64,000 nucleotides of DNA from a virus (IMGVR_UViG_3300010965_000427:32001-96000), one strand, 5' to 3'; shown: positions 956 through 55,139, counted from the first letter of the stretch. The notes: a model not told the origin generated them from the sequence alone. A program made the numbers and translations.

Positions 956-1031
956 CCAACGCAAAAAATAAAAAATAAACTGCTAAAGTTGCTATAACTG
1001 AAGTGGTTTATTTTTTATTAAAAAATAATCT

Positions 1032-1046
1032 CATATACTTAATTTG
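1032..1046 (+). promoter_or_regulatory. Putative phage early promoter motif CATATACTTAATTTG
   Basis: One of 8 similar 15-mers upstream of + strand accessory genes; reminiscent of the phiKZ early TATATTAC motif. Confidence 0.55.
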
Positions 1047-1098
1047 ATTCTATCTCATCGTGTCGGCGGGGTCACTAACGAGCTAACTGGAATTTAAC

Positions 1099-3173: not shown

Positions 3174-4340
3174 ATGCCATTGCTTCTTACGCGTTATCCA
3201 TTAGACCCAACAGGATTAAGCAATAATAATAGAGTTAATAATGAGATACACACCACAACTAATCGCCAAATTAGAGCTATTGCCCCAACATATGGAGCAT
3301 TTTTTACAACTTCGGTAAGCGTTGTAGATGCTACCACAAATGCAACTCTTACAAAAAATACAGACTATATTACAACAGAGCTTTTACAGGAAGCTACGTT
3401 GCGCTATGGAAAGGAACTCTGTTTATTAATATTAATAATTAATCCATCAGTTAGCCAAAATATCAGGATTAGTTACAATGTATTAGGCGGGGCATATCAA
3501 AATTTATCGCAAGAAATTCAACTTCTATATGAAAATATTTTAAATGATGGAAGACCAGTCAATTGGAACGATATTCAAAATAAACCATATGAATTCCCTC
3601 CTTCCTTGCATAATCATTTGCTAGCTGACGTAGTTGGCTTTGAGCCTTTAGTAACTGCGTTAGAAAGAATTAGAAATGCCATTATCCTCAGTGACGTTCC
3701 AGCTTTTGAAGCCATTATTGATTGGACATCCAGTCAGTTAGATTTTTTCAGACAGCATATTATAAATTATACTAACCCACATCGGGTTAATCTTGGCCAA
3801 CTTGGGCACACCGTTGCGACAATGGAGGAATTGGTCGCTGGGGTGTCAACAACAGCATTTATAACCCCAAGTATTTTAGTTCCTTATTTAATGTCGATTT
3901 TATCAAGAGGGCTTTACCAACTTACAAGCCCAGTTTCTGTTGTAGAAGGAGCTTCGGCAGTTTTTGTTATTAATACAACAAATGTTTTGAACGGGGCAAT
4001 AGTATATTGGTCTGTTGTAGATGTTCAAACTAGCCCTTTAGATTTTGTAGCCACAAGCGGTTTTGTAGCAATACAAAGTTCTACTGCTACTTTTTCAGTA
4101 TCGGTTAGGTCTGATACAATTTTAGAAACAGATGAAATATTTAGAATACAGCTTCGTAAAGAAGATGCTGCTGGTGAAATACTGGCATTATCCACTCCTG
4201 TGGTTGTAATAAACTATACTCCTCCAATATTTATTTCTTACGATTGGTTTACTTTACTTTTATTGGATACTTCTTTAATAAGTTCAGCAATTACAGTCGA
4301 GCCGGATGTATATTTCTTTGCTGGATCATTGGAACTTTAA
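3174..4340 (+). CDS. Virion tail-fibre-type protein: phiKZ-like N-terminal attachment domain plus Calx-beta-like domain
   Basis: YPLDPTG...N.V.NE.H N-domain shared with the 38-47 kb proteins; HIINYTNPHRV motif; VVEGASAVF...SDTILETDEIFRIQL Calx-beta-like segment. Confidence 0.65.
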   Translation: MPLLLTRYPLDPTGLSNNNRVNNEIHTTTNRQIRAIAPTYGAFFTTSVSVVDATTNATLTKNTDYITTELLQEATLRYGKELCLLILIINPSVSQNIRISYNVLGGAYQNLSQEIQLLYENILNDGRPVNWNDIQNKPYEFPPSLHNHLLADVVGFEPLVTALERIRNAIILSDVPAFEAIIDWTSSQLDFFRQHIINYTNPHRVNLGQLGHTVATMEELVAGVSTTAFITPSILVPYLMSILSRGLYQLTSPVSVVEGASAVFVINTTNVLNGAIVYWSVVDVQTSPLDFVATSGFVAIQSSTATFSVSVRSDTILETDEIFRIQLRKEDAAGEILALSTPVVVINYTPPIFISYDWFTLLLLDTSLISSAITVEPDVYFFAGSLEL

Positions 4341-4393: not shown

Positions 4394-6346
4394 ATGCCAA
4401 GAACTTTACACTCCCCAGAATACAATGTAGTGTCTCGAAGCGTGGTGGATATCGCCAGAGGAGGGACAAATGCAGAAACAAGCGACGCGGCAAAACACTC
4501 CCTTCGAGTTTTAGGAAGGCGGTCTCGCGATATTCCGTTTGGGTACGGGTCTCTTAATAGTTTAATACAATTAAAAGAAGAACAAATTCCGGCCAATTTA
4601 AATCAATTTATAAACATAAAAGGACCTTTAACGTCGGCGGCTGGAGCCCAAACAACTCACACTATAACAAATTTTGATATTGGAACGCTATATTTATTTT
4701 CAACAATATCTGGAACTATTACACATACGGAAGAAGTAATTACCTATACAGCCCCCTCCCTTCCAGGGGTAGCCGGCTTTTATATTAATGAAAAACCCTT
4801 TTACGTAACCGTAACTGGGGACGGAGTTGTGCAGCCGGCGATTACGTCGCCTTATGATAAAGCTACAAAACAATACAAATCGGTAGTTATTACAAGCAGT
4901 GCTTTTGTTTGCAACAGCACAATAACAGATTCGCATTTGTCATCGACATGGCAGCTTTCTGACACTCCAACATTCGATGTAATTAGGCAAAATAGCACTA
5001 GAAGTACCACAAATAAAACAACATGGACTGTTGTCAATTTAACAGAAAATACGACTTACTATGTTCGAGTTCTGCATACTGGAAATATAAACGGGGACAG
5101 CTTATGGAGCGGGGTGCGTTCTTTTACTACAAAATCAGGCTATTACCCACAAGTAGAAACATTTGAAATCGCTTCCGAAGCACTTCAAGCGAATGACCAA
5201 TTTGGGACATCGGTGGCTTTAAATGGGGTAGGAACATTATTTGCTGGCAGTGCTCCCACGGCAAACGATAGTTTTGGAATACCTTGCGGCGTTGTTTATA
5301 CATATTGGTTAAGTCACGGCACAACATGGGTTGGCTCAGACAGCTTAAAGCCATCTTCCCCAGCTATTGATCAACTATTTGGTTTTAGTATATCAATAAG
5401 TAATGATGGAAATACACTTGTAATTGGATCGCCAGGCCATAATGCAAATACTGGCGCTGTGTATATATTTACTCGTGCAAATAATGTTTGGACTCAATCG
5501 GTCATCTTATTAGCAAACGATTCTTCCCCTGGGGATATGTTTGGATATTCAGTGGAAATTTGTGGAAACGGAGCTACCATCGCAGTTGGTTCTATAAACG
5601 ATAGCAATCTTAATGGGACAAATTCAGGAGCGGTTTATATATTTTCATTTTCAGGCACAGCTTGGACTCAGCAAGCAAAGATATTAGCTATTTCAGCGGG
5701 AGACGGCTGGGCGTTTGGTACAAATGTAGCGCTAAGTTATGACGGAAATACTCTTGCCGCAAGCTATCCAAAGAAAACAATCAATGCCGTTGTTAATCGC
5801 GGGGCAGTGTCTATATATACACGTTATCAAGCAACGTGGACAGCAAATAGAGACGTTATTGATTCTGGTGGGGTAGCAAATGATTATTTTGGTAGCTCAT
5901 TAGCAATAAGCAGCACTGGAAATATTTTATTTGTTGGTAGCGGGTTGGCAGACACAACTCACGGAATAAATTCAGGCGTAGTTAGAGTCTATACCTTAAA
6001 TGGAGCCGATTGGGTATTTCAGGCCCAGTTACTTGGTGCAGATACAAGAACTGGGGATAATTTTGGAACATCAATTTCGTGTAATAACGACGGCTCTATT
6101 GTAATGATTGGAGCGCCATCAGCTGCAAATGTTTCTAGAAGAAATGCTGGGGCTAGCTATATTTTTACACAAGATGGAAATGTTTGGTCAGAAAGACCAA
6201 AGCTATTAGCCAATGATTCGACCGCCTATTCTTTCTTTGGCAATGCATTAAAATTATCGGCTGACGGAAATATGGCCGTCATATGTTCCTTTAGGCACCC
6301 ATTTAGCTATATTGATAATGCTGGAGCAGCATACATATTTAATTAA
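4394..6346 (+). CDS. Tail adhesin with FN3-like domain and FG-GAP beta-propeller
   Basis: GGTNA fibre motif; HLSSTWQLSD...YYVRV FN3-like unit; about 7 FG.SV.IS.DG...GS/AP...GAVYIF blades. Confidence 0.75.
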   Translation: MPRTLHSPEYNVVSRSVVDIARGGTNAETSDAAKHSLRVLGRRSRDIPFGYGSLNSLIQLKEEQIPANLNQFINIKGPLTSAAGAQTTHTITNFDIGTLYLFSTISGTITHTEEVITYTAPSLPGVAGFYINEKPFYVTVTGDGVVQPAITSPYDKATKQYKSVVITSSAFVCNSTITDSHLSSTWQLSDTPTFDVIRQNSTRSTTNKTTWTVVNLTENTTYYVRVLHTGNINGDSLWSGVRSFTTKSGYYPQVETFEIASEALQANDQFGTSVALNGVGTLFAGSAPTANDSFGIPCGVVYTYWLSHGTTWVGSDSLKPSSPAIDQLFGFSISISNDGNTLVIGSPGHNANTGAVYIFTRANNVWTQSVILLANDSSPGDMFGYSVEICGNGATIAVGSINDSNLNGTNSGAVYIFSFSGTAWTQQAKILAISAGDGWAFGTNVALSYDGNTLAASYPKKTINAVVNRGAVSIYTRYQATWTANRDVIDSGGVANDYFGSSLAISSTGNILFVGSGLADTTHGINSGVVRVYTLNGADWVFQAQLLGADTRTGDNFGTSISCNNDGSIVMIGAPSAANVSRRNAGASYIFTQDGNVWSERPKLLANDSTAYSFFGNALKLSADGNMAVICSFRHPFSYIDNAGAAYIFN

Positions 6347-7521: not shown

Positions 7522-7573
7522 ATTTAGCTAGATAGAGCCATACGGCTCTATCTAGCTAAATAACCTATTTTTT
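7522..7573 (+). terminator. Long-stem terminator
   Basis: Perfect 18-bp stem 7522-7539/7544-7561 with ATAC loop and a downstream T-run. Confidence 0.7.
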
Positions 7574-7581
7574 TACAATTA

Positions 7582-7626
7582 TATATAATAAATAAGACAT
7601 AACCTTACTACAATAGTAAGAGTGTC
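7582..7626 (+). promoter_or_regulatory. Promoter-like 15-mer plus conserved 31-nt leader hairpin (copy 1)
   Basis: TATATAATAAATAAG running into GACATAACCTTACTACAATAGTAAGAGTGTC (7596-7626). Confidence 0.6.
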
Positions 7627-7655
7627 TGTAATCAAAAAACTAAAGGCGGATAATC

Positions 7656-7997
7656 ATGCAGCCAAAAATCACCCAACCATTTCTTAATTTCCAACCGGCA
7701 TTTTTGTCGTACGACGAAAGAAGGAATATGTTTAAAGTATATATGGATGTAGAAGAAAAAGCTCGTTTTGAATGGCCTCATTTCATAATGACCTCGTCAA
7801 AATGGAGACCGGAAGAGGAAGAAACTACTGGGGCTTGGATGGCAAAATACGAATTGAGAGATAAAAACGATATGAAAATACAAAAATCCGAAATTGAAAA
7901 ATGGCTGCCAGGCAAGGATGTTTTAGTCTTTCAGCCAGTCTTAGCCATTTTTTCAAGTGATAAACCAGATGTTATCTTTAGCTTAGCCCCTCCATAA
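7656..7997 (+). CDS. Hypothetical protein
   Basis: 113-aa ORF with its own promoter-like motif and terminator. Confidence 0.7.
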   Translation: MQPKITQPFLNFQPAFLSYDERRNMFKVYMDVEEKARFEWPHFIMTSSKWRPEEEETTGAWMAKYELRDKNDMKIQKSEIEKWLPGKDVLVFQPVLAIFSSDKPDVIFSLAPP

Positions 7998-8016
7998 GTT
8001 ATGTTCGATTAGATTG

Positions 8017-8075
8017 ATTTAAACACTGTGCGACTAAAGTGAAAACTTTAGTCGCACAGTGTTTAAATTTTTTTT
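8017..8075 (+). terminator. Long-stem terminator with GAAA tetraloop
   Basis: Perfect 24-bp stem 8017-8040/8045-8068 followed by a T-run. Confidence 0.75.
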
Positions 8076-8090
8076 ATTAAAATATAGGCA

Positions 8091-8135
8091 CATATATTTA
8101 ATATGACACAACTTTACTATGGTAGTAAGAATGTC
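8091..8135 (+). promoter_or_regulatory. Promoter-like 15-mer plus conserved 31-nt leader hairpin (copy 2)
   Basis: CATATATTTAATATG running into GACACAACTTTACTATGGTAGTAAGAATGTC (8105-8135). Confidence 0.6.
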
Positions 8136-8156
8136 TTAACCTGTTTGGAATGTATT

Positions 8157-9191
8157 ATGTCAGAATTATTTATTGGCCATTGCGAGCCAACTGCTTTCAA
8201 TAGCACGTTAGCATTCTTAGTCGCCGGAAACTGCATTGTAAATTGGGGCGACGGAGTTACTGAGACTTTCAAAGCAAATACGCTTGCCTATCACGTTTAC
8301 TCTAAATATCAGCCAATAACTGCGCTAATAACTCCGCGGCCTGGTTCTCATTTAACTATTTTAGAATTTAATGCCGAGTATGGCTGCAATGTCTATTTTA
8401 CTAATATAAATGCGCAGTGCGAACATCTAGCGGTATTAAATTTTAATCCTAGTCAGCTAGCTTCTATTTCAATAGGAAAAAATAAAATTAAAGATTTCTC
8501 TGGGATGTTTTATAACTGCTCCAAAGCCGTGAATTTTTTAGAACTATTTGTGTCTGAAGGAATTAACTTTTCTGGAACATTTAGCAATTGTTGTAAAATT
8601 ACCAGTCTCCCACTGCTGGATACTTCCAAGGGAACAAACTTTCAAGGAATGTTTAACGGCTGCTCTGAGATCGCCAATTTCCCAAAAATAAACACTTCAA
8701 AAGGAAAAAATTTTAGAGGAATGTTTAACGGTTGTTCCAAAGCAAAAAGCTTTCCAGAATTAGATACTTCAGTTGGAATGGATTTTAGCTGGATGTTTGG
8801 TAATTGTTCTGGAGCTACCGGTTTTCCAAAGTTAAACACTTCTAATGGAACAAACTTTCAAGGAATGTTTGTAGGCTGTTCTGGGGCCACTAGCTTTCCA
8901 GATTTAAATACTTCTGCTGGCATTTATTTTAAAGGAATGTTTGACGGCTGTTGTAAAGCTGTGGGTTTCCCAGAGTTAAATACTTCAAAAGGAATTGACT
9001 TTACATGGATGTTTGCAGGCTGTTCTGAAGCCACCAGCTTTCCAGATTTAAATACTTCTGCTGGCATTTATTTTAAAGGAATGTTTGGAGGCTGTTTTAG
9101 GGCCGTTAATTTTCCAGAACTAGATATTTCAAAAGGAAAAGACTTTAGAAAAATGTTTTATAACTGTAATATAAAAAAAAGTAAAAAATAA
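8157..9191 (+). CDS. DUF285/BspA-like repeat protein with N-terminal WGDG domain
   Basis: Start moved to ATG 8157 because MSELFIGHC aligns with MTELFVGIC of the 1099 paralog; 10 repeats of 24 aa. Confidence 0.8.
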   Translation: MSELFIGHCEPTAFNSTLAFLVAGNCIVNWGDGVTETFKANTLAYHVYSKYQPITALITPRPGSHLTILEFNAEYGCNVYFTNINAQCEHLAVLNFNPSQLASISIGKNKIKDFSGMFYNCSKAVNFLELFVSEGINFSGTFSNCCKITSLPLLDTSKGTNFQGMFNGCSEIANFPKINTSKGKNFRGMFNGCSKAKSFPELDTSVGMDFSWMFGNCSGATGFPKLNTSNGTNFQGMFVGCSGATSFPDLNTSAGIYFKGMFDGCCKAVGFPELNTSKGIDFTWMFAGCSEATSFPDLNTSAGIYFKGMFGGCFRAVNFPELDISKGKDFRKMFYNCNIKKSKK

Positions 9192-9214
9192 TAGAGCCTA
9201 ATTTATATGGGAAA

Positions 9215-9244
9215 CTTACCATAGGTTATTTTACCTATGGTAAG
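9215..9244. terminator. Intergenic hairpin, probable terminator
   Basis: 12-bp perfect stem CTTACCATAGGT/ACCTATGGTAAG. Confidence 0.55.
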
Positions 9245-9281
9245 AACGAAACTTTTTTAACCCAACGCCGGATATTTTTTT

Positions 9282-10418
9282 ATGAAAAATTACCTCTCTC
9301 TGCTAAATAGCATAGTGTACGACGGAGATACACACGAAGACAGGACAGGCGTAGGACGAAGAAGCCTATTTTCTGCCGAGCTACGATATAATCTTGCGGA
9401 TGGATTTCCACTAGTAACAACTAGAAAAATTCCTATACGTCCTTTTATAGGCGAAATACTTTGGCATTTAACCGGCAGTAAAGACATACGCTTTCTTAAT
9501 GAAAATAAAATAAAAATTTGGGATGAATGGGCAGTTAATAAAAATCATATAAAAGACTTTATTGAAAATGTAATATTAAAAAAATTAATTACAAAAGAAG
9601 AACCAGAATCCGAGTCATTATCACAAATGATGAATATTCAGGCAATGCCGTTTTATGAGCATTTTGGAAATTCAATAGGACCTATATACGGTCCTAATTG
9701 GAGAGCTGCTCCTGGATCTGAATATAATCCCTTTAGAAAAGTCACTCCGCACGAAGACATCGAGAAAAAACGTTTACTAAATTTAAGAGCTGAATACATA
9801 AATTATTTAAAATTTATTAAAAATGATAAAAACAATGCTAGTCCATTAACAGAAGAGGAATTTATCGAACAAAACGTGCAATCAAATATAGACCAAGTGC
9901 AAAATTTATTAAATGGTTTAAAAAAACGTCCATGGTCTTCCAGGCACGTAATTTCATCATGGGTGCCAGAATGCATTCCGGATGAAGAATTGCCTCCTCA
10001 GTATAACGTTATTTTAGGAAAAGGGGCACTGGCTCCTTGTCCAATGACCCAACAATACTTTGTAACTCCTCCAAAAACTCCAAAAGATCTTCCCAGACTT
10101 TCCTTAAAAGTAACTAGCAGGTCGTGCGATTTTGTTCTTGGGGGACCTACCAATATAGCGGAATATTCGTTGTTAGTAAGTATGATTGCTCAAATAGTGA
10201 ATATGGAGCCTTATGAATTTATTTTTTCAATGGGCGATGTGCATATATACACTAATCAAATAGAAACGGCAAAGAAACAGTTAGATAGAGACCCAAAACC
10301 TTTGCCAAAATTAGTATTAAATAAAAATATTATAGACCTCTTTGATTTTACATTTGGCGATATTTCTATTGACGATTATAAATATCATCCGGTATTAAAG
10401 TATCCTATTTCTGTATAA
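9282..10418 (+). CDS. thyA: Thymidylate synthase with insertions
   Basis: DRTGVG, GFPLVTTRK, IWDEWA, GPIYG, ALAPC, RSCD..LG.P.NIAEY, GDVHIY.N motifs. Confidence 0.92.
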   Translation: MKNYLSLLNSIVYDGDTHEDRTGVGRRSLFSAELRYNLADGFPLVTTRKIPIRPFIGEILWHLTGSKDIRFLNENKIKIWDEWAVNKNHIKDFIENVILKKLITKEEPESESLSQMMNIQAMPFYEHFGNSIGPIYGPNWRAAPGSEYNPFRKVTPHEDIEKKRLLNLRAEYINYLKFIKNDKNNASPLTEEEFIEQNVQSNIDQVQNLLNGLKKRPWSSRHVISSWVPECIPDEELPPQYNVILGKGALAPCPMTQQYFVTPPKTPKDLPRLSLKVTSRSCDFVLGGPTNIAEYSLLVSMIAQIVNMEPYEFIFSMGDVHIYTNQIETAKKQLDRDPKPLPKLVLNKNIIDLFDFTFGDISIDDYKYHPVLKYPISV

Positions 10419-10427
10419 AAATAAAAA

Positions 10428-10754
10428 ATGACTAAAAATTATAAAATTATTATAACAAGAGTCGGAACATCATTACCTTATGAATATATTGGAAGACCAA
10501 GCCCTTTAGGTAATCCTTTACCGCTTTCCGAAACCGTTAGCCGTGATTTTTCTTGCGACCAATATGAAGTTTGGTTTGCAAAACAAATTGAAGATAATAA
10601 CGAAATAGTAATAAACGAATTAAAACGATTGCACAAAATAGGAATGAAACAAGGAATTCTTCGCCTTGGCTGTTATTGCTCTCCGAAAAGATGTCACGGA
10701 GATACTATTAAAAAGTATTTAGATGATAATAAAAGTGTATTTGAAATGTTTTAA
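10428..10754 (+). CDS. DUF4326-family protein
   Basis: YIGRPSPLGNP and LGCYCSPKRCHGD signatures. Confidence 0.85.
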   Translation: MTKNYKIIITRVGTSLPYEYIGRPSPLGNPLPLSETVSRDFSCDQYEVWFAKQIEDNNEIVINELKRLHKIGMKQGILRLGCYCSPKRCHGDTIKKYLDDNKSVFEMF

Positions 10755-10779
10755 ATGGCCTTTAACAGAGAAAAACATT

Positions 10780-11355
10780 ATGAAAATTCCTACGTTGTTG
10801 CTTCCGTTAGAACCAAAAGTAATTACTCCATTAAAGTCTATAGCAAAAACAGAAGCAAATGTTGATGGATGTTATATAGTTCCGGTAGGAGGTCTAAATG
10901 TAAAAGGAGCTTCAAATAAATGGTATAAATTAAAAAAATCGTTTCATTTGTTTGATAAAAATGAACAATTTATGAGAAATGTATTTATTGGAAAAGTCTT
11001 TTCAGAAATGGATGGGCCAAGCCTAGATAAAAAAGAAGATTTTAGTAAACAAGCCGAAAGACTTGTTCTAATGGAACCAAATAATGTATGCGGGATGATA
11101 AAGGATGTGTCTTTAGTAGATATTCAAGGAAGCGTAATAGAAAACGAAGATTATGAATGCCCTGTAAGCATAATGGCATCTATTAAGCCGATTGGGCCTC
11201 ATGCAAAAATATTAGAAAATGCCATTCAACACGAGACATCAATTAATTACGGATTTGCTTTAAGAGGAATTATGCTTGTAGATTCCATTTCAAATGGAGA
11301 CAATTTAAGTATTGATATTTGTTCTGTTATAACATTTGATTTAGTGCGATGTTAA
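10780..11355 (+). CDS. Peptidase S80 (phiKZ gp175-like prohead protease) homolog, apparently lacking catalytic residues
   Basis: YIVPVGGLN, FMR...G.V.SE..., IKPIGP and GFALRG blocks follow the S80 pattern. Likely start is ATG 10780. Confidence 0.6.
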   Translation: MKIPTLLLPLEPKVITPLKSIAKTEANVDGCYIVPVGGLNVKGASNKWYKLKKSFHLFDKNEQFMRNVFIGKVFSEMDGPSLDKKEDFSKQAERLVLMEPNNVCGMIKDVSLVDIQGSVIENEDYECPVSIMASIKPIGPHAKILENAIQHETSINYGFALRGIMLVDSISNGDNLSIDICSVITFDLVRC

Positions 11356-11361
11356 TGGGCC

Positions 11362-11721
11362 ATGATTAATTTAAGGCAGACAATTATTGTTCAATGGGCT
11401 ATATCGAAACTTTCCAAATTAGGTATTTTTAATAGTTATAAAGATGTAAATAATTTTGATGATTATAAAACTAGAAAAACCAATAAACCAGTTTCTTTAT
11501 GCCCTGTTTTATTTTTTAAGACTAATCAAGACTCTGGTTTTTTTGAAGTTGAGCGAGTTTCCCATACAAAACGTAACCGTGTGGTATATTATGTAAGGCA
11601 TGTTAAAAGTAAACGACTGTTTACTATTCAAAAAGAATGGTTTGAATTAATATTCACAGAAGCAAAAATTGAAAAAACTCCTATTGAATTTATGAACCAA
11701 TTAAACGCTTTTAAAAAATAA
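11362..11721 (+). CDS. Hypothetical protein
   Basis: 119-aa ORF in operon. Confidence 0.65.
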   Translation: MINLRQTIIVQWAISKLSKLGIFNSYKDVNNFDDYKTRKTNKPVSLCPVLFFKTNQDSGFFEVERVSHTKRNRVVYYVRHVKSKRLFTIQKEWFELIFTEAKIEKTPIEFMNQLNAFKK

Positions 11722-12239
11722 TGAAGTCTCATGAATTTACTGATTTGACATTAATAGAAATGCCGAAGGACTGTCCAGACCCAAAGTTTCCAATTTACGT
11801 CACTACTGATAAATGGGTGCTTTGTTTTGGAGGAAGTTTAGCTACTAAAATTAATAATAAACTTTCTATAGTTTTACATAAATGTGTACATGAAAATAAT
11901 TCTTGGTTTAATGTAGCATTAACTCATGAATTAGGGCATCTTTTATCAAACCATAATTTGGTAGAAACTAATCCTAAAATATTTAATTTTAAAGAGGAAT
12001 TTCAGGCCGATTTATGTTCATTCTTATTTGTAGTTTTAATATCCAAATCTAAAATCTCGGCTAAGATTTTAATAATTAAATATCTTTCAATTGGGCATTA
12101 TATTTCATTTTTAAATATTTATAATGTTTTAAGAAAAAAAAATAACGTATTAATTTGCAGTCTTATAATGATGAAACTATTGACGTTATATATTGTATCA
12201 ATTGTAGCAAGAGCAATAAATATTATTAAAGCTAAATGA
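11721..12239 (+). CDS. Putative zinc metallopeptidase (HExxH; ImmA/IrrE- or M48-like)
   Basis: ALTHELGHLL and a downstream EEFQAD motif; hydrophobic C-terminus. Confidence 0.6.
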   Translation: MKSHEFTDLTLIEMPKDCPDPKFPIYVTTDKWVLCFGGSLATKINNKLSIVLHKCVHENNSWFNVALTHELGHLLSNHNLVETNPKIFNFKEEFQADLCSFLFVVLISKSKISAKILIIKYLSIGHYISFLNIYNVLRKKNNVLICSLIMMKLLTLYIVSIVARAINIIKAK

Positions 12240-12248
12240 TTAATTGTC

Positions 12249-12282
12249 TTTACTCAGCTTAGCCTGCGCTAAGCTGAGTAAA
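12249..12282. terminator. Bidirectional terminator between convergent genes
   Basis: Perfect 15-bp stem TTTACTCAGCTTAGC/GCTAAGCTGAGTAAA. Confidence 0.7.
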
Positions 12283-12319
12283 AACATCTGATTTTTTTTA
12301 AAACTATAATTACATCTCT

Positions 12320-13849
12320 TTAAATGAATGAAAATAACTCTGAACTTGTTCCTGCTAATTTAGTAGGTAATTTTGAAAACCCGCTATCCTCTTGGTCAAC
12401 GTCGTCTGGTATTGGCATTTTTCCAGGAAATTTTAATAGAAAATATTTATCAACATTAGGAAGTATTGTTGGTAGTCTGTGTTTTCCTCTTTGCACAGAC
12501 AAATATGTTTCGTCTTTTACTTTAACTAAATGAATGTGCATCTCTAAATCTATTTCTTGGCACAGTTGTTTAGAACCAGCCCAGTATCCTTTCTCAGCTA
12601 CTTCTTTAACAAATTGATCTTGCGGCATTCCGTTTCTTACTAAAGTTTTAGTGTCAGTTGATAATTGATGCGGTGTAATTAGTGTGATCTTTTTAGGCCC
12701 GCAAAATACACGCAGTCTTCTGAACATCTCTCTTAGATCTGTTCCTATTGGACCGCTAGAAGCACACCCAGTCGTGGGAACCATTCCAAGGTAATCCAAC
12801 ATAAGCAACTGAACTTCGTAACCATTAGCTTCCAACTCAATTATTTTATTACAAATATTTTTATAAGACCAAGCAAAAGGATCTACCCTCATCATCTTAA
12901 TATGAAAACCGTTAACTTGCAGTCTTCTTTTAATATATTCGCTCATTGTTTGAACGCTAATTCCTGTCAAATCAATTTCTTCTTTAGTTTCCTCAAAATA
13001 AAGTAGTTGATATAGAAACTGTAGATTTTCAGCCAAATCGTCTTCAAAAGAAATACGAAGTAAAAGAGGTTTTTTTGTTATATCAAATAAATACGGATTG
13101 TTATGTAGTGCGATTTGTTTAAAAATAGACAAAGTAAAGCCTGTTTTATAATTATGCTGCTGAGCGCCAATTGTGCAAAACTCTCCTCTTCTAAAACCTC
13201 CTTGAAGCATTCTGTTTAATCTTTGCCACCCAGTGGACAAAATGCCGTGGCCATTTGCATTATCTCTAATAGTTTTAAAAACAGCTTGCGTTTGGCCTTC
13301 GTCGCCGATATCTACGTCTGATATAACACCGGTATCTTTTGTTGTGGCTGTATTTTGCAAAGGTTCTAATTGACCAATAACTTCGCTTATAAATAATCCA
13401 ATATCTTTTATCGAATCTCTATTTACCCTAAATCTATAGGAAGCTTTATTTAATATTTCACTTATTTTTTCTTCTTTAAAATGAGTGGTAATTGATCGTC
13501 TTAAATTAATAATTGTTCTTTTTAGTTGAGCTTCCGTAAGAATTGGCTCGACGCCTTGGCGTATTGCTTCTAGTAATTTATTATCTTCATCTACATTTAC
13601 TTGAATTTGTTGTAAAAAGCCGCTAATATCATATTCATAGTCAATTGGATTATTACACATATCCATGACAGTTTGTTTTAATGCTAACAGTCTTTCTCTG
13701 TCTGTATGTAAACCTATTCCTATATCAGATATTTTAACAGAATCCATTGCAGTGCGAACTAAGTCCACACTATTTTCGGTATGCTGGTCTAGTTGGCTTT
13801 CCCGATACAGCAGAGAGATACTTTTCACTAGTAAAAGATTTGGCTTCAT
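12320..13849 (-). CDS. DnaB-like replicative helicase (phiKZ gp118-like)
   Basis: TGWQRLNRMLQGGFRRGE, variant Walker A GAQQHNYKT, LLMLDYL, TPHQLS, QRGKHR; divergent from the capsid block as in phiKZ. Confidence 0.88.
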   Translation of the reverse strand: MKPNLLLVKSISLLYRESQLDQHTENSVDLVRTAMDSVKISDIGIGLHTDRERLLALKQTVMDMCNNPIDYEYDISGFLQQIQVNVDEDNKLLEAIRQGVEPILTEAQLKRTIINLRRSITTHFKEEKISEILNKASYRFRVNRDSIKDIGLFISEVIGQLEPLQNTATTKDTGVISDVDIGDEGQTQAVFKTIRDNANGHGILSTGWQRLNRMLQGGFRRGEFCTIGAQQHNYKTGFTLSIFKQIALHNNPYLFDITKKPLLLRISFEDDLAENLQFLYQLLYFEETKEEIDLTGISVQTMSEYIKRRLQVNGFHIKMMRVDPFAWSYKNICNKIIELEANGYEVQLLMLDYLGMVPTTGCASSGPIGTDLREMFRRLRVFCGPKKITLITPHQLSTDTKTLVRNGMPQDQFVKEVAEKGYWAGSKQLCQEIDLEMHIHLVKVKDETYLSVQRGKHRLPTILPNVDKYFLLKFPGKMPIPDDVDQEDSGFSKLPTKLAGTSSELFSFI

Positions 13850-13996
13850 TTTTTTCTTTTCTTAAATTAATTAGGTCATTGTTTTCCATAGTATCGTAGT
13901 CTACTTTTTTTCTTAAATAGCTGCAATTAAAAAGCAAATGGTATGGCAATTCTAACACGTAATAGCTAATCCGACTAAAACTGGAAATTAACTGCA

Positions 13997-14662
13997 ATGT
14001 TAAGAATTGAAGATAGCAGCCCTCTATACGTATTAGATAATGTAAATGCTCCAATTACATCAAATCAAACATATTTAAAAAAGGATGTAATCATTGTACC
14101 AGAATGGATTTTCAGATGTCTTATTAGAAATAAACTAAATTATATGGACTTATTCGATTATAGTCGTTTATCGGCTGTTTTAGCTACTTCTGATATTTTA
14201 GAATTAGTGGCTACAAATATACTGCTAACCAAACTCTTATTTTCCACTTTGCCTTTTGCTAATAATAAAAACAATATTGACTTAATTGAGCCTCCGATGA
14301 GTTTGGCACTAGTTGAGGAATGGCAACAAAGTTTTTCTTTTCAAAAATCTGGGCTAGGTTCTATTATATACAATTACGATTATTTAAAATCTTATGAAAA
14401 CTCAATTAAAACAAAATTAACTTCTGAAAAAATAGAAAATTTTTCTTTAGAAACAGATTTAAAATCGTGTTATTCAATACACACTGGTCCTGACAAAACA
14501 GTTTTTATGCTAGTAAAACCAGGAATTATTGAAAGACATCAAAATATAGATTTTTTAAAAATACTATGCGAATCGCTATTAACTGAATTTTATCGTTTAT
14601 ATCCAATGCATGTGTGCTCAACTGTTAATAATATTTTTTCTAAGTACGTTAGTCTGCTTTAA
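13997..14662 (+). CDS. Conserved jumbo-phage protein upstream of the capsid gene
   Basis: 221-aa ORF located between helicase and major capsid protein. Confidence 0.6.
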   Translation: MLRIEDSSPLYVLDNVNAPITSNQTYLKKDVIIVPEWIFRCLIRNKLNYMDLFDYSRLSAVLATSDILELVATNILLTKLLFSTLPFANNKNNIDLIEPPMSLALVEEWQQSFSFQKSGLGSIIYNYDYLKSYENSIKTKLTSEKIENFSLETDLKSCYSIHTGPDKTVFMLVKPGIIERHQNIDFLKILCESLLTEFYRLYPMHVCSTVNNIFSKYVSLL

Positions 14663-14701
14663 AAAAAGCATCTTTTCTACGTTTGACACCAGGGCCTAAA
14701 A

Positions 14702-16918
14702 ATGAACACAATATTCACAAAAAATTCCCGTCGCAGCCTGGCCCCTTCGCCGACCGACAAGAACGTGGAGCTCTATAGCTCCGTGGTAAACGGAAACAAT
14801 TCCTTCGGGAGTTCAAAGTTGACGCGTGTAGCGTTAGCAATGGAAGGCATGAATGACAGCGATTACGGCCTGCTAACCAGTTCGGCTTCCGAGCTTTCTA
14901 TCGCGATTGAGTCGTGTATTGAACAACTCGGTTTAACAAAGTGCACCATTCAGCCCCAAATCGACGCCGCCGTAGTAGCCGGCATGATCGCAGGTGATCC
15001 GCAAGCATTTTTCAGATTCGAGCCTAAGCCGCTTGGCGTGGCGACAGAATCCATGGCCATCATGGCCCAAACGGCATTTGATGCCGTTGAACGGCGAATG
15101 ATTTCGACGGAAGCGTACGACGAACGGGACAACAAAAACACAGTTGTCTATTCGATTGAATACAATATGCAATCCGCCCGCCAAGACGAATTTGGCGAAG
15201 CCTGGTTCCCGACGATTGTCATTACGCCGGACCAAGTCGGGTTCGACGTAACTGTCCGAATTCTGTCCGTGATGAACGATTTCAAGCGAAGCATCACCGG
15301 CGAAATTGATAACTTTGACCGTAAAAATCTCATTCGAGCGATTGCCGACCCCACCATTCTGAAGAACGACGGCACACGAGTAATACCAGTTGCTCGCGCT
15401 CAGGCCGCCTCGAAGTTCGTCAGGCCGACCATTATTCCAGTTCGAACAATTTTACACGAAGGCGAATCGATTGTCACAGCTCCTTTGGCATTCGGCCAAA
15501 CATTCAGCCTGCTTGGCATTTCCCAGACCGACACGCTTCTGGCAAATGGCGCAATGGACCTCACCGACACACTCGATACCGGGTCGGTGCTGGAAAACAT
15601 CTATGTTCGAGTTGGCGGGGTCGTTGGCGGCCCCACCCCGCGAATTGGTGATGTTTTAAAATTCAATGTGACCAATCTTCCGTTAAGCAATTTTACAAAT
15701 GCAATTCAAGGCAGCTATCGTTTGATGCTGCTGAATTTCCAAACAAGCAGTATGCTGATAAATAAGAATACAAAAAATAACGACGGCAGCGCATTGATCG
15801 ACCTTATTTCCGTTGTCACCAACGACCTGATTGTCCGGCTGGCTATCAATGTCACCGGGTCTATCAACATCGAGACTGCGGAAACGGTTCTGTATGGCAA
15901 TCCAATTAGCGTGGCGTCCGTCCAAAATGCTGCTGGAGAGCTTCTGGACTTAACCCAAGAACCGGCAGCATCACTGGTTTCTTTATTCGCGAACGGCGAG
16001 CCCATCGGTTATGACCTGAAGGCTTATCGCACCAACATGAACCGTCGTCAGCGCGGCCAGCTGATCAATACGACGCAATACACTCAGCGCTACCCGGTGA
16101 CTCTGCGCAGCCCGATTACGGCAATTCATCCTGTCAACACAGACGGCCAAACCGATACATCGGATCTGGCAAGCCTGATAACCGCCACTCGGATTCGGAC
16201 GTCAAATGCAAGCGTTGGTGCGTTGATCGCTCAAGCGACCGCCCTGGGCGAATATGTTGACGCACGAGATTCGGCCGGCGTCGGCCCGGATGTCATAGGC
16301 GTCGGCCGGTTCTATGTGAAGCCTACGTTCTTCTATGAATCCGTAGACGTTCTGGCTCAAATCAATTCGGTAAAGACTTCTGAAAGAATTGCAGACATCC
16401 AGGCTGTTTTGGTAAACAAGCTTCGAGACTATGCCTACAAGATGTATCGCGATTCCGAGTACAAGGCAGCGGCAGACGCCTTGGCCGGCGGCCTTGCTCC
16501 TACGCCGGTTGTGCTGATCGGAACCGACCCAATCATTGCTCGTTATTTGTGCGTCTCCGGCGATCTGCGAACTCTCGGGGCCTCTGAGTTTGACGTGCGA
16601 ATCGTCCATACTCTGGATAACCGTGTAAAGGGAAAGATATTTATTTCATTTAGTGTCTTCGATGAGACACGAAATACCACCATTAATCCTTTGAATTTTG
16701 GCAATATGGCGTGGTCTCCTGAAATCACGGTTGTTCTGCCTATTTCCCGCGATGGCCAAATTTCTCGAGAACTGGCTGTCCAGCCACGTTTCTCCCACGT
16801 AGTCAATCTCCCGGTGATGACAGTCCTTTCCGTCGTCGGTATTTCCGATACGCTGGACAAGATCCCGCTCACAATCGCCACGTCAATCGTTGCTCCGATA
16901 CATACTGTTACACCATAG
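14702..16918 (+). CDS. Major capsid protein (phiKZ gp120-like)
   Basis: 738 aa; ARQDEFGEAWFPTIVITPDQ, RTNMNRRQRG and VQPRFSH blocks; S/A-x-E propeptide cleavage motifs (ISTE/AYDE); strong terminator downstream. Confidence 0.9.
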   Translation: MNTIFTKNSRRSLAPSPTDKNVELYSSVVNGNNSFGSSKLTRVALAMEGMNDSDYGLLTSSASELSIAIESCIEQLGLTKCTIQPQIDAAVVAGMIAGDPQAFFRFEPKPLGVATESMAIMAQTAFDAVERRMISTEAYDERDNKNTVVYSIEYNMQSARQDEFGEAWFPTIVITPDQVGFDVTVRILSVMNDFKRSITGEIDNFDRKNLIRAIADPTILKNDGTRVIPVARAQAASKFVRPTIIPVRTILHEGESIVTAPLAFGQTFSLLGISQTDTLLANGAMDLTDTLDTGSVLENIYVRVGGVVGGPTPRIGDVLKFNVTNLPLSNFTNAIQGSYRLMLLNFQTSSMLINKNTKNNDGSALIDLISVVTNDLIVRLAINVTGSINIETAETVLYGNPISVASVQNAAGELLDLTQEPAASLVSLFANGEPIGYDLKAYRTNMNRRQRGQLINTTQYTQRYPVTLRSPITAIHPVNTDGQTDTSDLASLITATRIRTSNASVGALIAQATALGEYVDARDSAGVGPDVIGVGRFYVKPTFFYESVDVLAQINSVKTSERIADIQAVLVNKLRDYAYKMYRDSEYKAAADALAGGLAPTPVVLIGTDPIIARYLCVSGDLRTLGASEFDVRIVHTLDNRVKGKIFISFSVFDETRNTTINPLNFGNMAWSPEITVVLPISRDGQISRELAVQPRFSHVVNLPVMTVLSVVGISDTLDKIPLTIATSIVAPIHTVTP

Positions 16919-16950
16919 ACCTCTCACTACTGAATCTGTAGGTTAGGTCT

Positions 16951-17008
16951 CCTCCCGCCAGACCAGTTTAGGCTGGTCTGGCGGGAGGCGTATTTTTTTT
17001 TGTTTTTT
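16951..17008 (+). terminator. Strong terminator after the capsid gene
   Basis: 16-bp GC-rich stem 16951-16966/16973-16988 followed by a long T-tract. Confidence 0.85.
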
Positions 17009-17048
17009 TACAATAAAATTAAATAAAGCCTATATAAAAAAATAGTCG

Positions 17049-17089
17049 CATATACTTCATATGCTGTTTGGTTTAGTTTGTAAACCAAA
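17049..17089 (+). promoter_or_regulatory. Promoter-like 15-mer followed by a short hairpin
   Basis: CATATACTTCATATG, then TTTGGTTTA/TAAACCAAA. Confidence 0.55.
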
Positions 17090-17118
17090 TTACAAATAAC
17101 AAATAAAGGTAAAAACCA

Positions 17119-17682
17119 ATGACTTTTAATGCTATTAACGAAGACTCTTCCAGTTGGGAAATTATTGCTGAAATTTCCACTGGAACAGCTTTATCTTTTT
17201 TAAAAAACGAAACCCAACTAGAAGCTCCATTTGGAGTTTCTAAAGAAAAATTGAATGAGTCTATATTAGAAGAAAAATGGAAAAATAATCACAGAATTTA
17301 TATGAGATGCGACGCTATTGCAAATACATCCTTTCAAATAAGTATGTTAAAAACCCAATTAGCAATATATCTATGCAAAAAAAGTAAAGATAAATTAATA
17401 GTAGAAAGGCCGTTTATTTTAATTGAAGGTTTGGTTTATTTTGGAGAAGCCAGACTTAGAGGATCAGATGGTTTTGAGTTATTGCTGGCATTTCCGGAAG
17501 GTTATTTTTCATGCAAAGAACCTCCAGGGCAAAGAAAATATAGTATGCTCGGCTATGCTTCTGGAGTAATGGGCCAAGGATTAAAATTTAACCCATTGCT
17601 TAAATTGTGTGAAGAATGGGAATTCCTTGCCGACGATCAACCGATTGCATCAATGCCAGATAGACCGGTAATCTTGCTATAA
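17119..17682 (+). CDS. Hypothetical protein; C-terminal half paralogous to 19656..19931
   Basis: Shared P.GYF...G.M.QG...NP.L.L.E.W.F...IL motif. Confidence 0.7.
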   Translation: MTFNAINEDSSSWEIIAEISTGTALSFLKNETQLEAPFGVSKEKLNESILEEKWKNNHRIYMRCDAIANTSFQISMLKTQLAIYLCKKSKDKLIVERPFILIEGLVYFGEARLRGSDGFELLLAFPEGYFSCKEPPGQRKYSMLGYASGVMGQGLKFNPLLKLCEEWEFLADDQPIASMPDRPVILL

Positions 17683-17764
17683 ATTCATGTGGTTGCGTGG
17701 TTATAAAGCTAAGTTGTTATTTGTAACCACGTAATCGCATGAATCAAAAAGAGATCTGCAAAAA

Positions 17765-18268
17765 ATGATAGAAACAGAACATCAATTTCGCGTCATTACC
17801 GAAACTCCAGAACCTTATAAAACATTACAAAAATTATCGGAAAACCCAAACTTTACTTATCATTTAACAGACATGCTTTTCTTTGTTGGTTTTTGCGTGG
17901 TGCCTCCTATTTATATATTCTTTTGTGAAAATACGGCTGAACAATTATTATTTCTAAATTCATTAGGTTTTAATATTTATAATAATGATTTAGAATTTAA
18001 TGATAAAATGCCAATGCAAGATAGTTTAACAAAATACATTTATGTTCACAACGAATCAAAAATAGCAATAGAAGTAGTAACAAATATAGATATAAAAAAG
18101 AAAGCACAATTATCGTTATTAAATAAAATTCGTTTAGAAGAAAGAACTAGAGCAGTAAAAATTAAAACAATGTTTTTAACTTATAATCAATTGCAAAAAC
18201 AAAAAGAATGGAATAAAACGATTCAAGAAGAGCGGAACAAAGCAATGGCTGAAAAAAGAAAAAAATGA
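17765..18268 (+). CDS. Hypothetical protein, paralog family with 18265 and 20027
   Basis: YHLTD...IFF...E...FL..LGF...IYVH.ES...IDIKKKA pattern. Confidence 0.65.
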   Translation: MIETEHQFRVITETPEPYKTLQKLSENPNFTYHLTDMLFFVGFCVVPPIYIFFCENTAEQLLFLNSLGFNIYNNDLEFNDKMPMQDSLTKYIYVHNESKIAIEVVTNIDIKKKAQLSLLNKIRLEERTRAVKIKTMFLTYNQLQKQKEWNKTIQEERNKAMAEKRKK

Positions 18269-18762
18269 TTAACCTAGAAAGTTTTACACCAACTTTAAAT
18301 TTAGAACCGCTAAATACACTAATAAAACTTATTTCTAATAACGATTATGTTTATTTCTTAACAGATTCTAGATATATCGAATCTAAATTTTGTAGAAAAA
18401 TTCAAAACTCTATTTCCCACGAATGGATATTTTTTGCAGATTATTCTTTAGAACATGTAGAATTTTTAAAGAATATTGGTTTTTATTTATACGAGGATGG
18501 AACATTTATACACACAGATTCAGATATTTTAACACATTCCATTTATGGCCATGATGATTCAAACGTTTACATCCAACTTGTAATTGATATTGAATTAAAA
18601 AAAGCGGCGTTAGATTTAATTGTAGAAAATATTATTGCAGAGCAATCCAATATTTCACACCCTTTGCAGAACGCATTTATAAACTCCGATGATGTATTAA
18701 TGAGAGAAGCTTGGAATTGTGCAATAAGAACTTGTAGAAAAATTAATAATGAGAATGCATAA
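18265..18762 (+). CDS. Hypothetical protein, possibly a degenerate nucleotidyltransferase fold
   Basis: YFLTDSRY...HEWIFF resembles LTGSR...DxD. Confidence 0.6.
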   Translation: MINLESFTPTLNLEPLNTLIKLISNNDYVYFLTDSRYIESKFCRKIQNSISHEWIFFADYSLEHVEFLKNIGFYLYEDGTFIHTDSDILTHSIYGHDDSNVYIQLVIDIELKKAALDLIVENIIAEQSNISHPLQNAFINSDDVLMREAWNCAIRTCRKINNENA

Positions 18763-19315
18763 TTTGTTTTACATTATTTATAAAAAACTTTTTAGAATTA
18801 AATCACACATTGAAATAATTGAAGAAGATAATTCAAATTTGATCCGCTTTGGGGATCTTTATCAAGGAGATTGGTTTTATAAAAATAGACATTTTTGCCA
18901 AGTTGTTACCAGAACCAAACAATGTTACAGTGTATTAAATCCCAATTCCGCTTTATTTAGTAGAACTGGTAAAATCTCATTAGACAGTTTCAATTATAAA
19001 GATCTGGTCGTTCCAATTAAGTGCAAATATAGCTTTACAACTAACAATCTTTTATCAACTAATAAATCAGATTTTTCAGAATTTTTAACGGAATTTTATA
19101 TGCCGTCATTATTTGAATGTTTAAATAACAATCAACCATTCTGGCACTGCCGTCTTAAATGTTTCGGAATCGTAGTCCCTTATAAAAGAAACCCAGTTAA
19201 TTACTCAATGCCCAATTCTTTATTAATCTTTTCAGATGATTCTTTGCGCACAGAAACAATGCGCGCTTGTGAAGCTGTTGTTCCTATTAACAAAGTAATA
19301 GTTAAAAAACTTTAA
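18749..19315 (+). CDS. Hypothetical protein with an apparent internal duplication
   Basis: Two halves with similar pattern: FGDLYQGDWF...NPNSAL...DLVVPI and FECLNNNQPF...MPNSLL...EAVVPI. Confidence 0.6.
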   Translation: MRMHNLFYIIYKKLFRIKSHIEIIEEDNSNLIRFGDLYQGDWFYKNRHFCQVVTRTKQCYSVLNPNSALFSRTGKISLDSFNYKDLVVPIKCKYSFTTNNLLSTNKSDFSEFLTEFYMPSLFECLNNNQPFWHCRLKCFGIVVPYKRNPVNYSMPNSLLIFSDDSLRTETMRACEAVVPINKVIVKKL

Positions 19316-19602
19316 TGAAAGATTTTAAACATAAAGTTTTAATGGAAAACCCTGAGCAAACTTTAAAAATAATATTAGAATTGTGTGAAGATAATAATTT
19401 TGGCCAAATGCACTATTATGTTCCATTAAAAACAGTTACATTAGATGGCGTAGAAATTATTGTTGACGAAGACGACCCAAAAGGTCGGTTTTATTTAATA
19501 GAATCGATGAATGAAAATGACACTGGCCATCATTATAATGATACTTTTGAAGTAATTGCTCACATTTTAAGATTGAAAAATAAAATAATTACATATACAT
19601 AA
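19315..19602 (+). CDS. Hypothetical acidic protein
   Basis: 95-aa ORF, translationally coupled (TAATG). Confidence 0.65.
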   Translation: MKDFKHKVLMENPEQTLKIILELCEDNNFGQMHYYVPLKTVTLDGVEIIVDEDDPKGRFYLIESMNENDTGHHYNDTFEVIAHILRLKNKIITYT

Positions 19603-19636
19603 AGCGACATAGCCTTATCATAACGGTAAGAGTGTC
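19592..19636 (+). promoter_or_regulatory. Promoter-like 15-mer plus conserved 31-nt leader hairpin (copy 3)
   Basis: CATATACATAAAGCG running into GACATAGCCTTATCATAACGGTAAGAGTGTC (19606-19636). Confidence 0.6.
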
Positions 19637-19655: not shown

Positions 19656-19931
19656 ATGATGCTGTTATATGACGATATGATCTACGTCGGCGCCCTGGTC
19701 ATTGCTGGCTCCCCGGAAATTGCCGCATTGGTGGCTCTTCCTGTCGGATATTTTCGCGAATTCAACATTAATGAAAAAGAGAGCAAGATGAGGGCCGAAT
19801 ACTACTTCCAAGGAGCAATGGATCAAGGAATGATCCATAACCCAGTTCTCAGGCTATTTGAATCGTGGGATTTTATTCCTGAAGATTGGCATTTCTCAGA
19901 CTTGTCAAACAAAACCACCATTCTCATCTAA
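19656..19931 (+). CDS. Hypothetical protein, paralog of the C-terminal domain of 17119..17682
   Basis: Visible alignment over about 85 aa. Confidence 0.7.
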   Translation: MMLLYDDMIYVGALVIAGSPEIAALVALPVGYFREFNINEKESKMRAEYYFQGAMDQGMIHNPVLRLFESWDFIPEDWHFSDLSNKTTILI

Positions 19932-19980: not shown

Positions 19981-20012
19981 GCTAGCGGTTTTGCCGCTAG
20001 CAGTTTTTTTTT
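19981..20012 (+). terminator. Intrinsic terminator
   Basis: GCTAGCGG/CCGCTAGC stem plus a T-run. Confidence 0.75.
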
Positions 20013-37952: not shown

Positions 37953-38016
37953 GTTTATCACCAAAAGACTAGAGTAAACTTAGTTGAGATTTTGTTATAA
38001 ATTTTGAGAACTAAAA

Positions 38017-47727: not shown

Positions 47728-47816
47728 TGTTGAAACCTCCAAACATTAAGTTAATTTAGTTTTCTAGTCTCAAAAGATCTAGTTTGTTTTAAAAAGCAAT
47801 CAAAAGGAAATCAGCT

Positions 47817-55092: not shown

Positions 55093-55106
55093 AAAATTAA
55101 GAGTTA

Positions 55107-55139
55107 CATATATTTAATATAGTTCTTTAAATGGAACTA
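55107..55139 (+). promoter_or_regulatory. Promoter-like 15-mer followed by a short hairpin
   Basis: CATATATTTAATATA, then TAGTTC/GAACTA. Confidence 0.55.

Follow-up and report, generated by a model that had tools for sequence, protein, structure and literature searches.

Question and main finding

Three 31-nt elements of one design lie on the plus strand of a 64,000-nt stretch of viral DNA (hereafter the window), beginning at positions 7596, 8105, and 19606, and each stands ahead of a different gene. The question that they raise is what a short foldable sequence, repeated in this way, does for the genes behind it. The window comprises bases 32001 to 96000 of one 121,727-bp virus contig (G000; 34% G+C). 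A preliminary description had read the elements as hairpins fused to a promoter-like motif, and all three 31-mers are present in the window letter for letter as given there, each directly behind the motif without a gap. Their distances of 29, 21, and 19 nt to the start codon (the ATG is at 8157 for the copy at 8105) agree with the earlier estimate of about 20 to 30 nt. On balance, though not strongly, we think it probable that the element is a 5′-terminal leader hairpin on the mRNAs of one phage-specific promoter class, carried in a portable cassette and protecting or marking early mRNAs.

A family of hairpins at 17 loci

The frame GACA-N23-TGTC occurs three times in the window against 0.42 expected, and none of 100 shuffles reached three; a degenerate pattern of the family also occurs three times, with 0.00 expected. 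A pattern scan of the whole contig gave eight copies, and a covariance model built from these eight added a ninth, divergent one (genome 20730-20760; 29.8 bits). With the family pattern, three matches were found in a viral contig collection, all of them within a second virus record (G002; 66.6 kb), and none in a metagenome contig collection or a genome contig collection. Model searches located nine copies in G002, all on the minus strand, one of which is the same locus as a G000 copy. The covariance-model scan that the preliminary description had proposed thus enlarges the family to 17 loci (18 sites) in approximately 188 kb, on one strand throughout within each contig. Three loci (four contig copies) have one identical hairpin sequence. 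A promoter-fused version of the pattern returned 44 loci, of which only the three in G002 score with the model, and the other 41 were dismissed as chance matches.

G000 and G002 seem to abut, as neighboring parts of a single phage or of two phages that are almost identical. The 126 nt at the end of G002 (66476-66601) match the final 127 nt of G000 (121601-121727) in reverse complement at 99.2% identity, an overlap that takes in a unique upstream terminator hairpin. Their gene contents are complementary: G000 carries the major head protein, and G002 carries a nuclear-shell protein (phrog_4795), a tail sheath, a terminase, a DNA polymerase, and further RNA polymerase subunits. No orthologs are shared, only paralog-level protein matches (22-37%), and likeness at the DNA level is restricted to the hairpin cassettes and one 434-nt stretch (70% identity). 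It looks as though a jumbo-phage genome broke at a repeated cassette to give the two records. Because of this overlap and the complementary genes, the loci of both records are counted together.

Among the collections searched, the hairpin family is confined to one lineage. Short matches of about 82% to window positions 7575-7614 in two DNA runs hint at relatives.

The hairpin is conserved as an RNA structure

The fold that we used has a 5-bp outer stem, three unpaired bases opposite one, a 7-bp inner stem, and a 3-nt apical loop. It departs in two respects from the preliminary description, which had given a 4×2 internal loop and an invariant outer GACA/TGTC stem. A 3×1 loop (AAC opposite A) describes the copies better, and it is closed by U-G (8), U-A (3), or C-A (3) and never by G-C. 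In the wider family, the outer stem is not invariant and covaries, with changes in the divergent copies from A-U to G-C, from G-C to A-U, and from C-G to U-A. The apical loop had been described as free, and columns 16 to 18 do vary freely.

Covariation was tested on 14 distinct sequences with 12 pairs, giving 168 cells, against 500 shuffles that ignore the relatedness of the copies. Pairing is present in 92.3% of the cells, compared with 30 to 51% when the partners are slid by one to three columns, and two-sided changes occur in 8 of the 12 pairs (15 cells). The observed pairing, the number of two-sided changes, and the covariation score were each reached by none of the 500 shuffles. This signal derives from the divergent copies, whose inner stems have changed from C-G to U-A, from A-U to G-C, and from U-A to C-G; the seven distinct G000 sequences alone have no power, with one covarying pair that does not rise above the shuffles. 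Eighteen of the 168 cells are G-U wobbles, which would be mismatches if the opposite strand were the RNA, and model scores drop from 28.7-49.8 bits on the sense strand to at most 22.5 bits on the reverse. We therefore read the sense strand as the RNA. Covariation and sense-strand wobbles bear out the earlier claim of a structured RNA motif: the 31-nt hairpin is a real, selected RNA structure of the sense strand.

Conservation is not confined to the pairing. Five bases (A6, T10, T11, A24, and A26) are the same in every copy, and A7 is conserved to at least 90%. Folds of single copies range from −4.6 to −9.1 kcal/mol, and five of seven have a z-score of −2 or lower; the G+C content of the copies is 0.23 to 0.45. 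Folded together with its surroundings (95 nt), the hairpin forms a domain of its own in 14 of 17 cases.

The same data bear on a different idea, in which the element acts as double-stranded DNA. Being an inverted repeat, it would be an operator for a dimeric phage transcription factor, perhaps a winged-helix protein of the PadR-like or FUR-like type, that shuts the units off. A palindromic element at +1 to +31 would occupy the classic roadblock position, and possible transcription regulators are encoded by the phage: small winged-helix proteins that are PadR-like (window 51520-51810; L064 17597-18025) or FUR-like (L064 7172-7783). Half-site sequences, however, are not conserved, since both sides change together in 8 of the 12 pairs, and the G-U wobble cells keep an RNA helix while breaking DNA symmetry. 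The element is also strand-asymmetric, with its 3×1 loop, and the model scores far lower on the other strand. A DNA operator is accordingly very unlikely. A PadR-type operator was rejected in addition by order and spacing, which do not fit the consensus.

The preliminary description had called for a comparison with Rfam, and no Rfam family matched the 64-kb window. At E values of up to 5 in window 7560-8180, neither of the two hairpins there drew a match of its own. Most of the rows fall on the terminator hairpin (8016-8067), from which two long sub-threshold ones (Srn266 and NrrF) extend across 8105-8135. The internal loop was also compared by eye with two consensus motifs. It is not a K-turn, as it lacks tandem G-A pairs after the bulge, nor a UAA/GAN loop, as position 25 covaries with position 9 as a Watson-Crick pair.

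The hairpin begins at the predicted start of a phage-specific promoter class

At all 18 sites, base 1 of the hairpin is the base right after a 22-nt promoter motif. A weight matrix of this motif, applied at a cutoff of 12 bits to the 188,328 nt of G000 and G002, gave 40 matches, compared with a mean of 2.7 and a maximum of 6 in a first-order Markov null. Nineteen lie on the plus strand of G000, 21 on the minus strand of G002, and none on the opposite strands. By crude open reading frame (ORF) calls, 38 of the 40 are intergenic, and most lie 17 to 114 nt upstream of a co-oriented ORF. A sigma-70 scan returned 55 sites against 55.2 expected, and none of them consists of a −35 partner and the conserved ATATA box. 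We read the motif, whose 40 matches all fall on one strand per contig, as phage specific.

The geometry of the motif is a conserved AT block ending at −7, six further bases, and then a purine, which is present in 40 of 40 matches (31 G and 9 A). This equals the geometry of the mapped early promoters of the AR9 virion polymerase, described as an AT-rich 13-mer, 6N, and G(+1), with the start at the G six bases past the AT block (PMC5312081). According to a review, over-represented AT-rich motifs centered near −10 turned out to be early promoters in every jumbo phage profiled (PMC7598289), and those of phiKZ are reported to have an extended −10 box with a T-rich upstream part (PMC8244752). The promoters described here resemble the AR9 and phiKZ accounts in having an over-represented AT-rich motif near −10, on one strand, ahead of small genes of unknown function (PMC5312081, PMC7598289, PMC8244752), although the letters of the motif differ. 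From the promoter geometry and the purine at +1, we infer that transcripts start at base 1 of the hairpin; the element had been proposed to be 5′ terminal, and its place at the predicted +1 is fixed in 18 of 18 sites. By analogy, the class most likely comprises early promoters, used by the virion RNA polymerase of a phiKZ-like jumbo phage that forms a nucleus. One hairpin-less promoter lies 42 nt before a 155-amino-acid (aa) ORF that directly precedes the nuclear-shell gene, which fits the expectation for an early class.

A probable portable terminator-promoter-leader cassette

The best reading of the surroundings is that the element belongs to a portable terminator-promoter-leader cassette of about 95 nt. 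Its usual order begins with the terminator that ends the preceding unit, followed by an A/T-rich stretch and the 22-nt promoter. The hairpin then occupies +1 to +31, and an 11-nt spacer separates it from a strong GGAG ribosome-binding site, which lies about 6 to 7 nt ahead of the start codon. A terminator-like hairpin with a T-run lies upstream of 14 of the 18 sites, and its sequence differs from site to site. Of the 17 leaders, 13 have GGAG at +42 to +44, and in 10 of these it lies at +43. At ribosome-site spacing GGAG precedes only 29 of the 188 ORFs of the two records, concentrated in promoter cassettes. Most genes of G000 and G002 have weak, A/G-rich ribosome-binding sites. The features of the three window cassettes (c4, c5, and c6), and of three promoters of the same class without the hairpin, are listed in Table 1.

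Cassettes that are 88 to 99% identical over 87 to 107 nt precede unrelated genes, as the preliminary description had anticipated in suggesting a portable cassette. They head short, often single-gene units of ORFans and repeat-protein paralogs; the units at 7596 and 19606 are single-gene units because scanned terminators flank them. The downstream genes had been described as non-homologous, and this holds for the three window copies, whose proteins are mutually unrelated by blastp, but not for the family as a whole. Four paralogs with DUF285 (BspA-type) repeats (window 35-955, 1099-2208, and 8157-9191; L003 782-2224) are 344 to 590 aa long, about 50% identical, and internally repeated, and three of them have the hairpin leader (the copy at 8105 and two outside the window). 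In G002, a tandem of four paralogous genes (9615-12084; L063, minus strand) encodes proteins of 165 to 170 aa, each with a separate promoter-hairpin cassette in front. A 144-aa gene of G000 (genome 30341-30775), whose promoter is hairpin-less, is distantly paralogous to this set. The remaining downstream proteins are unrelated ORFans of 91 to 188 aa without a significant Pfam or PHROG family, one of them with a below-threshold DUF4318 match.

Duplication on this scale could mean that the hairpin is a passenger with no function of its own, spread with its promoter cassette by duplication and gene conversion and still paired only since the copies are young. The identical hairpins at three loci, the 88 to 99% identity of whole cassettes, their presence in tandem paralog arrays, and the paralog at window 1099 that does without a hairpin would all suit this idea. 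The divergent copies do not: those at genome 20730 and at G002 11418, 64575, 10757, and 12054 have altered four to nine stem positions and remain paired through two-sided changes, while their flanks have diverged. A neutral relic would lose its pairing, and we therefore consider a passenger improbable.

The cassette also bears on whether the hairpin is an attenuator or a source of leader RNA, in which a stop just past it would give a small RNA of about 35 to 40 nt. Eight small RNAs derived from 5′ untranslated regions (UTRs) by premature termination are described for the related jumbo phage 201phi2-1 (PMC11512511), and some copies have a partly U-rich stretch after the hairpin. Yet the hairpin lacks the G+C-rich stem and U-run of an intrinsic terminator: its stem is AU-rich and interrupted, the tails are not T-runs, and the terminator scan lists none of the three window copies while finding terminators beside them. 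A strong ribosome site and a gene also follow at a fixed distance. We regard attenuation as highly doubtful.

Table 1. Coordinates of cassette features and related sites in the window
Feature	Position	Strand	Scores and remarks
Promoter of the same class with the leader tail and no family hairpin; +1 at 1046; drives the DUF285 paralog 1099-2208	1024..1098	+	19.3 bits
Terminator-like hairpin and T-run upstream of cassette c4	7522..7561	+	18 pairs; T-rich tail; −31.5 kcal/mol
c4 promoter motif; 22-nt weight-matrix window; ATATATA core	7574..7595	+	17.7 bits
c4 leader hairpin; 5-bp outer stem, AAC/A internal loop, 7-bp inner stem, 3-nt loop	7596..7626	+	−9.1 kcal/mol; z −3.94; 49.8 bits
c4 leader tail; weak ribosome-binding site AAGG	7627..7655	+	
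113-aa ORFan behind c4; single-gene unit	7656..7997	+	No family (PHROG, Pfam)
Terminator-like hairpin and T-run closing the c4 unit, ahead of c5	8019..8066	+	20 pairs; −41.9 kcal/mol
c5 promoter motif	8083..8104	+	23.6 bits
c5 leader hairpin; fifth outer pair C-A, not U-G; first inner pair U-G	8105..8135	+	−4.6 kcal/mol; z −0.65 (weak alone); 44.1 bits
344-aa DUF285 repeat protein behind c5	8157..9191	+	phrog_22899; PF03382, 5.2e-19
Hairpin-less promoter; different 9-bp hairpin in leader (17063)	17041..17062	+	18.5 bits; z −3.57
c6 promoter motif	19584..19605	+	20.2 bits
c6 leader hairpin; U-G wobble and A-C mismatch beside loop	19606..19636	+	−8.1 kcal/mol; z −2.68; 44.7 bits
91-aa ORFan behind c6	19656..19931	+	No family (PHROG, Pfam)
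Terminator-like hairpin and T-run closing the c6 unit	19981..20001	+	Terminator scan
Hairpin-less promoter; leader opens with second small hairpin type	55099..55120	+	19.7 bits; z −3.23

Promoters of the class without the hairpin

The hairpin follows 18 of the 40 promoter sites (17 loci) and is absent from the other 22, a split that agrees with the earlier proposal that the element marks a subset of transcripts. A possible degenerate fourth copy had been suggested at about 1045-1074 of the window. The promoter and the shared leader tail are indeed present there; the hairpin is not, since neither covariance model matched the site and its fold is no better than that of shuffled sequences (z +1.29). 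Nine of the 22 hairpin-less leaders hold a hairpin with a z-score of −1.5 or lower. Among hairpin-less sites, a second hairpin type with a 6-bp stem from the predicted +1 is found at window 55121-55138 and at about 65772 of G002 (minus strand), and unrelated 5′-proximal hairpins occur at others, for example, at window 17063 and at G002 63445 and 38807.

Possible roles: protection, marking, or both

How, then, might such a hairpin act? An mRNA base-paired from its first nucleotide would have its 5′ end hidden from 5′-end-dependent decay of the pyrophosphohydrolase, RNase E, or RNase J type, and the strong ribosome site just downstream would let accessory early genes be expressed at a high level. 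A protein may read the hairpin as well, as suggested by the conserved AAC/A internal loop and by the conserved sequence of the lower inner stem. Stem-loops at the 5′ end, alone or together with ribosome binding, are described as established mRNA stabilizers in ompA, papA, and aprE (review PMC3997798). A role in protecting and marking messages appears most likely.

Several observations weigh against this account. The folds are weak: two of seven copies are no better than their shuffles (z −0.65 and −1.45), and alternative folds win in 3 of the 17 contexts of 95 nt. Many copies are recent duplicates, so that conservation is partly a matter of shared descent or gene conversion, and the shuffles behind the covariation test take no account of relatedness. 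Promoters without the hairpin (22 of 40) have leaders that are not significantly structured as a set (p 0.07), and 5′ structure is thus not a general need of the promoter class. A conserved internal loop is not needed by a purely protective hairpin. The early timing is assigned by analogy only, to a start site that is itself predicted. Finally, neither covariance model gave a match better than an E value of 1.5 in G001, the nearest other phage compared (major head protein 56% identical; 144 kb, about half complete).

G001 has a G+C content of 45.7% and repeated motifs of its own that differ from the hairpin cassette. A perfect palindromic hairpin of about 40 nt occurs at seven intergenic sites (for example, 1531, 41253, and 94622 among the G001 repeats), and a motif of about 30 nt stands before AT-rich boxes at some nine sites; these are probably its terminators and early promoters.

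The conserved internal loop and lower inner stem suggest a protein reader, and recognition could be the main function instead, with 5′ protection secondary. The hairpin would then be an operator or address tag, whose AAC/A loop and lower inner stem are read by a phage or host RNA-binding protein that switches translation or decay or sorts messages. We hold this to be a possibility, clearly short of probable. The pattern of conservation would suit it: of the unpaired bases, A6 and A26 never change and A7 hardly does, in contrast to the variable apical loop, and the closing pair is restricted to U-G, U-A, and C-A. So would the fixed spacing of the ribosome site (13 of 17 leaders) and the presence of the element at only 18 of 40 promoters. 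On the other side, no RNA-binding family of the RegA, RegB, Cas6, KH, or S1 type was found among 147 proteins scanned with Pfam, which are mostly ORFans from an incomplete genome, and the conservation may in part reflect recent duplication. One form of the idea, which we put forward only tentatively, is that a dedicated phage factor reads the AAC/A loop and selects a subset of virion-polymerase transcripts for a separate fate. Such messages might be translated preferentially or at set times, be shut off in a programmed way, or be handled at the early vesicle or nuclear shell. The tag would then define a regulon of early genes at the post-transcriptional level, of a kind that has yet to be described in jumbo phages.

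The preliminary description had also placed the element in a phage-nucleus setting, with which the encoded nuclear-shell protein is in line, and had considered a tag for export from the early vesicle or phage nucleus. For an export tag we found no specific support: every mRNA of such a phage must exit the compartment, yet only a subset has the hairpin.

Relation to known leader elements

The described system that comes closest is that of the promoter-early stem-loop (PeSL) cassettes of the T4-type phages RB49/phi1, PST, and nt-1, as described in PMC2839356 and PMC4122927. They too are short composites, built from an AT-rich stretch, an early promoter, a stem-loop, and a Shine-Dalgarno sequence, and they occur in many copies directly before ORFans, with near-identical cassettes before unrelated genes and a terminator and promoter in one intergenic unit. 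In those accounts, however, PeSL promoters are of the host sigma-70 type, whereas the motif here is phage specific and the phage encodes its own polymerases. The PeSL stem-loop is described as a G/C-rich terminator, found inside the promoter, ahead of it, or immediately before the start; the hairpin here is predicted to be transcribed from +1, is AU-rich, has a conserved internal loop, and lacks a U-run. Terminators here are separate and not conserved in sequence. The element is thus not a PeSL, which is ruled out by promoter type and by the place, composition, and role of the stem-loop.

Stem-loops that stabilize mRNA from its 5′ terminus are the other close kind, to which the T7 gene 10 leader is assigned. 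The likeness to ompA, papA, and aprE, as reviewed in PMC3997798, lies in a stem that runs from the first transcribed base (predicted in our case) and is followed by a strong ribosome site. Those stabilizers, as described there, belong to single genes and have no conserved internal loop, unlike the present hairpin, which is multicopy and has conserved unpaired bases; its effect on half-life is putative.

Among leader hairpins read by proteins, the lambda nut boxB and the coat-protein operators of RNA phages are recognized through the apical loop or a bulge. Here, in contrast, it is an asymmetric internal loop that is conserved, and the apical loop varies freely. The element shares with boxB, the coat operators, and the rne leader the combination of conserved unpaired bases and covarying stems, and the rne 5′ UTR hairpin is described as having an internal loop (PMC3997798). 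Antitermination is unlikely because the single-gene units end at their own terminators. The passages on jumbo-phage transcription that term searches brought up from PMC8244752, PMC11512511, PMC5312081, and PMC7598289 describe no conserved leader hairpin after early promoters, and a full-text literature search on jumbo-phage early promoters with stem-loops returned no report of one.

The source phage

PHROG and Pfam matches place G000 as a distant phiKZ-like jumbo phage. They include a 738-aa major head protein (phrog_3231), split RNA polymerase beta-type subunits (phrog_3233 and phrog_2986), and a phiKZ-type internal head protein and protease. Among named phages, the best match of the major head protein is that of Burkholderia phage FLC9, at 46.5%. 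A megablast search with 5 kb gave no match in phage records. DNA runs that contain the window stretch carry freshwater metagenome labels.

Elsewhere in the records, several large FG-GAP repeat proteins are encoded (window 4394-6346 and 35512-37617; L065 9540-11468; L066 632-1756), as are paralogs with a phrog_2163-type N terminus of the virion or tail-fiber kind (window 3174-4340, 41096-44323, and 44479-47742). Together these amount to an enlarged repertoire of probable receptor-binding proteins. The gene-free look of the 3 kb at window 38000-41000 is an artifact of crude ORF calling, and a 1,054-codon open frame is present there.

Implications

To our knowledge, what is known of gene control in jumbo phages that form a nucleus concerns promoters almost exclusively. 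In the collections searched, the element is limited to one lineage, that of an uncultured freshwater phage known from sequence alone. Its cassette marks where the phage keeps and duplicates accessory ORFans, and the assembly of terminator, promoter, leader, and ribosome site could be of use as a portable expression part. The 31-nt element is a defined object, with clear stem and loop mutants, for asking how early messages are protected, timed, or selected. For the phage itself, an RNA structure supported by covariation splits one promoter class into two message sets, and this points to a post-transcriptional layer of gene control.

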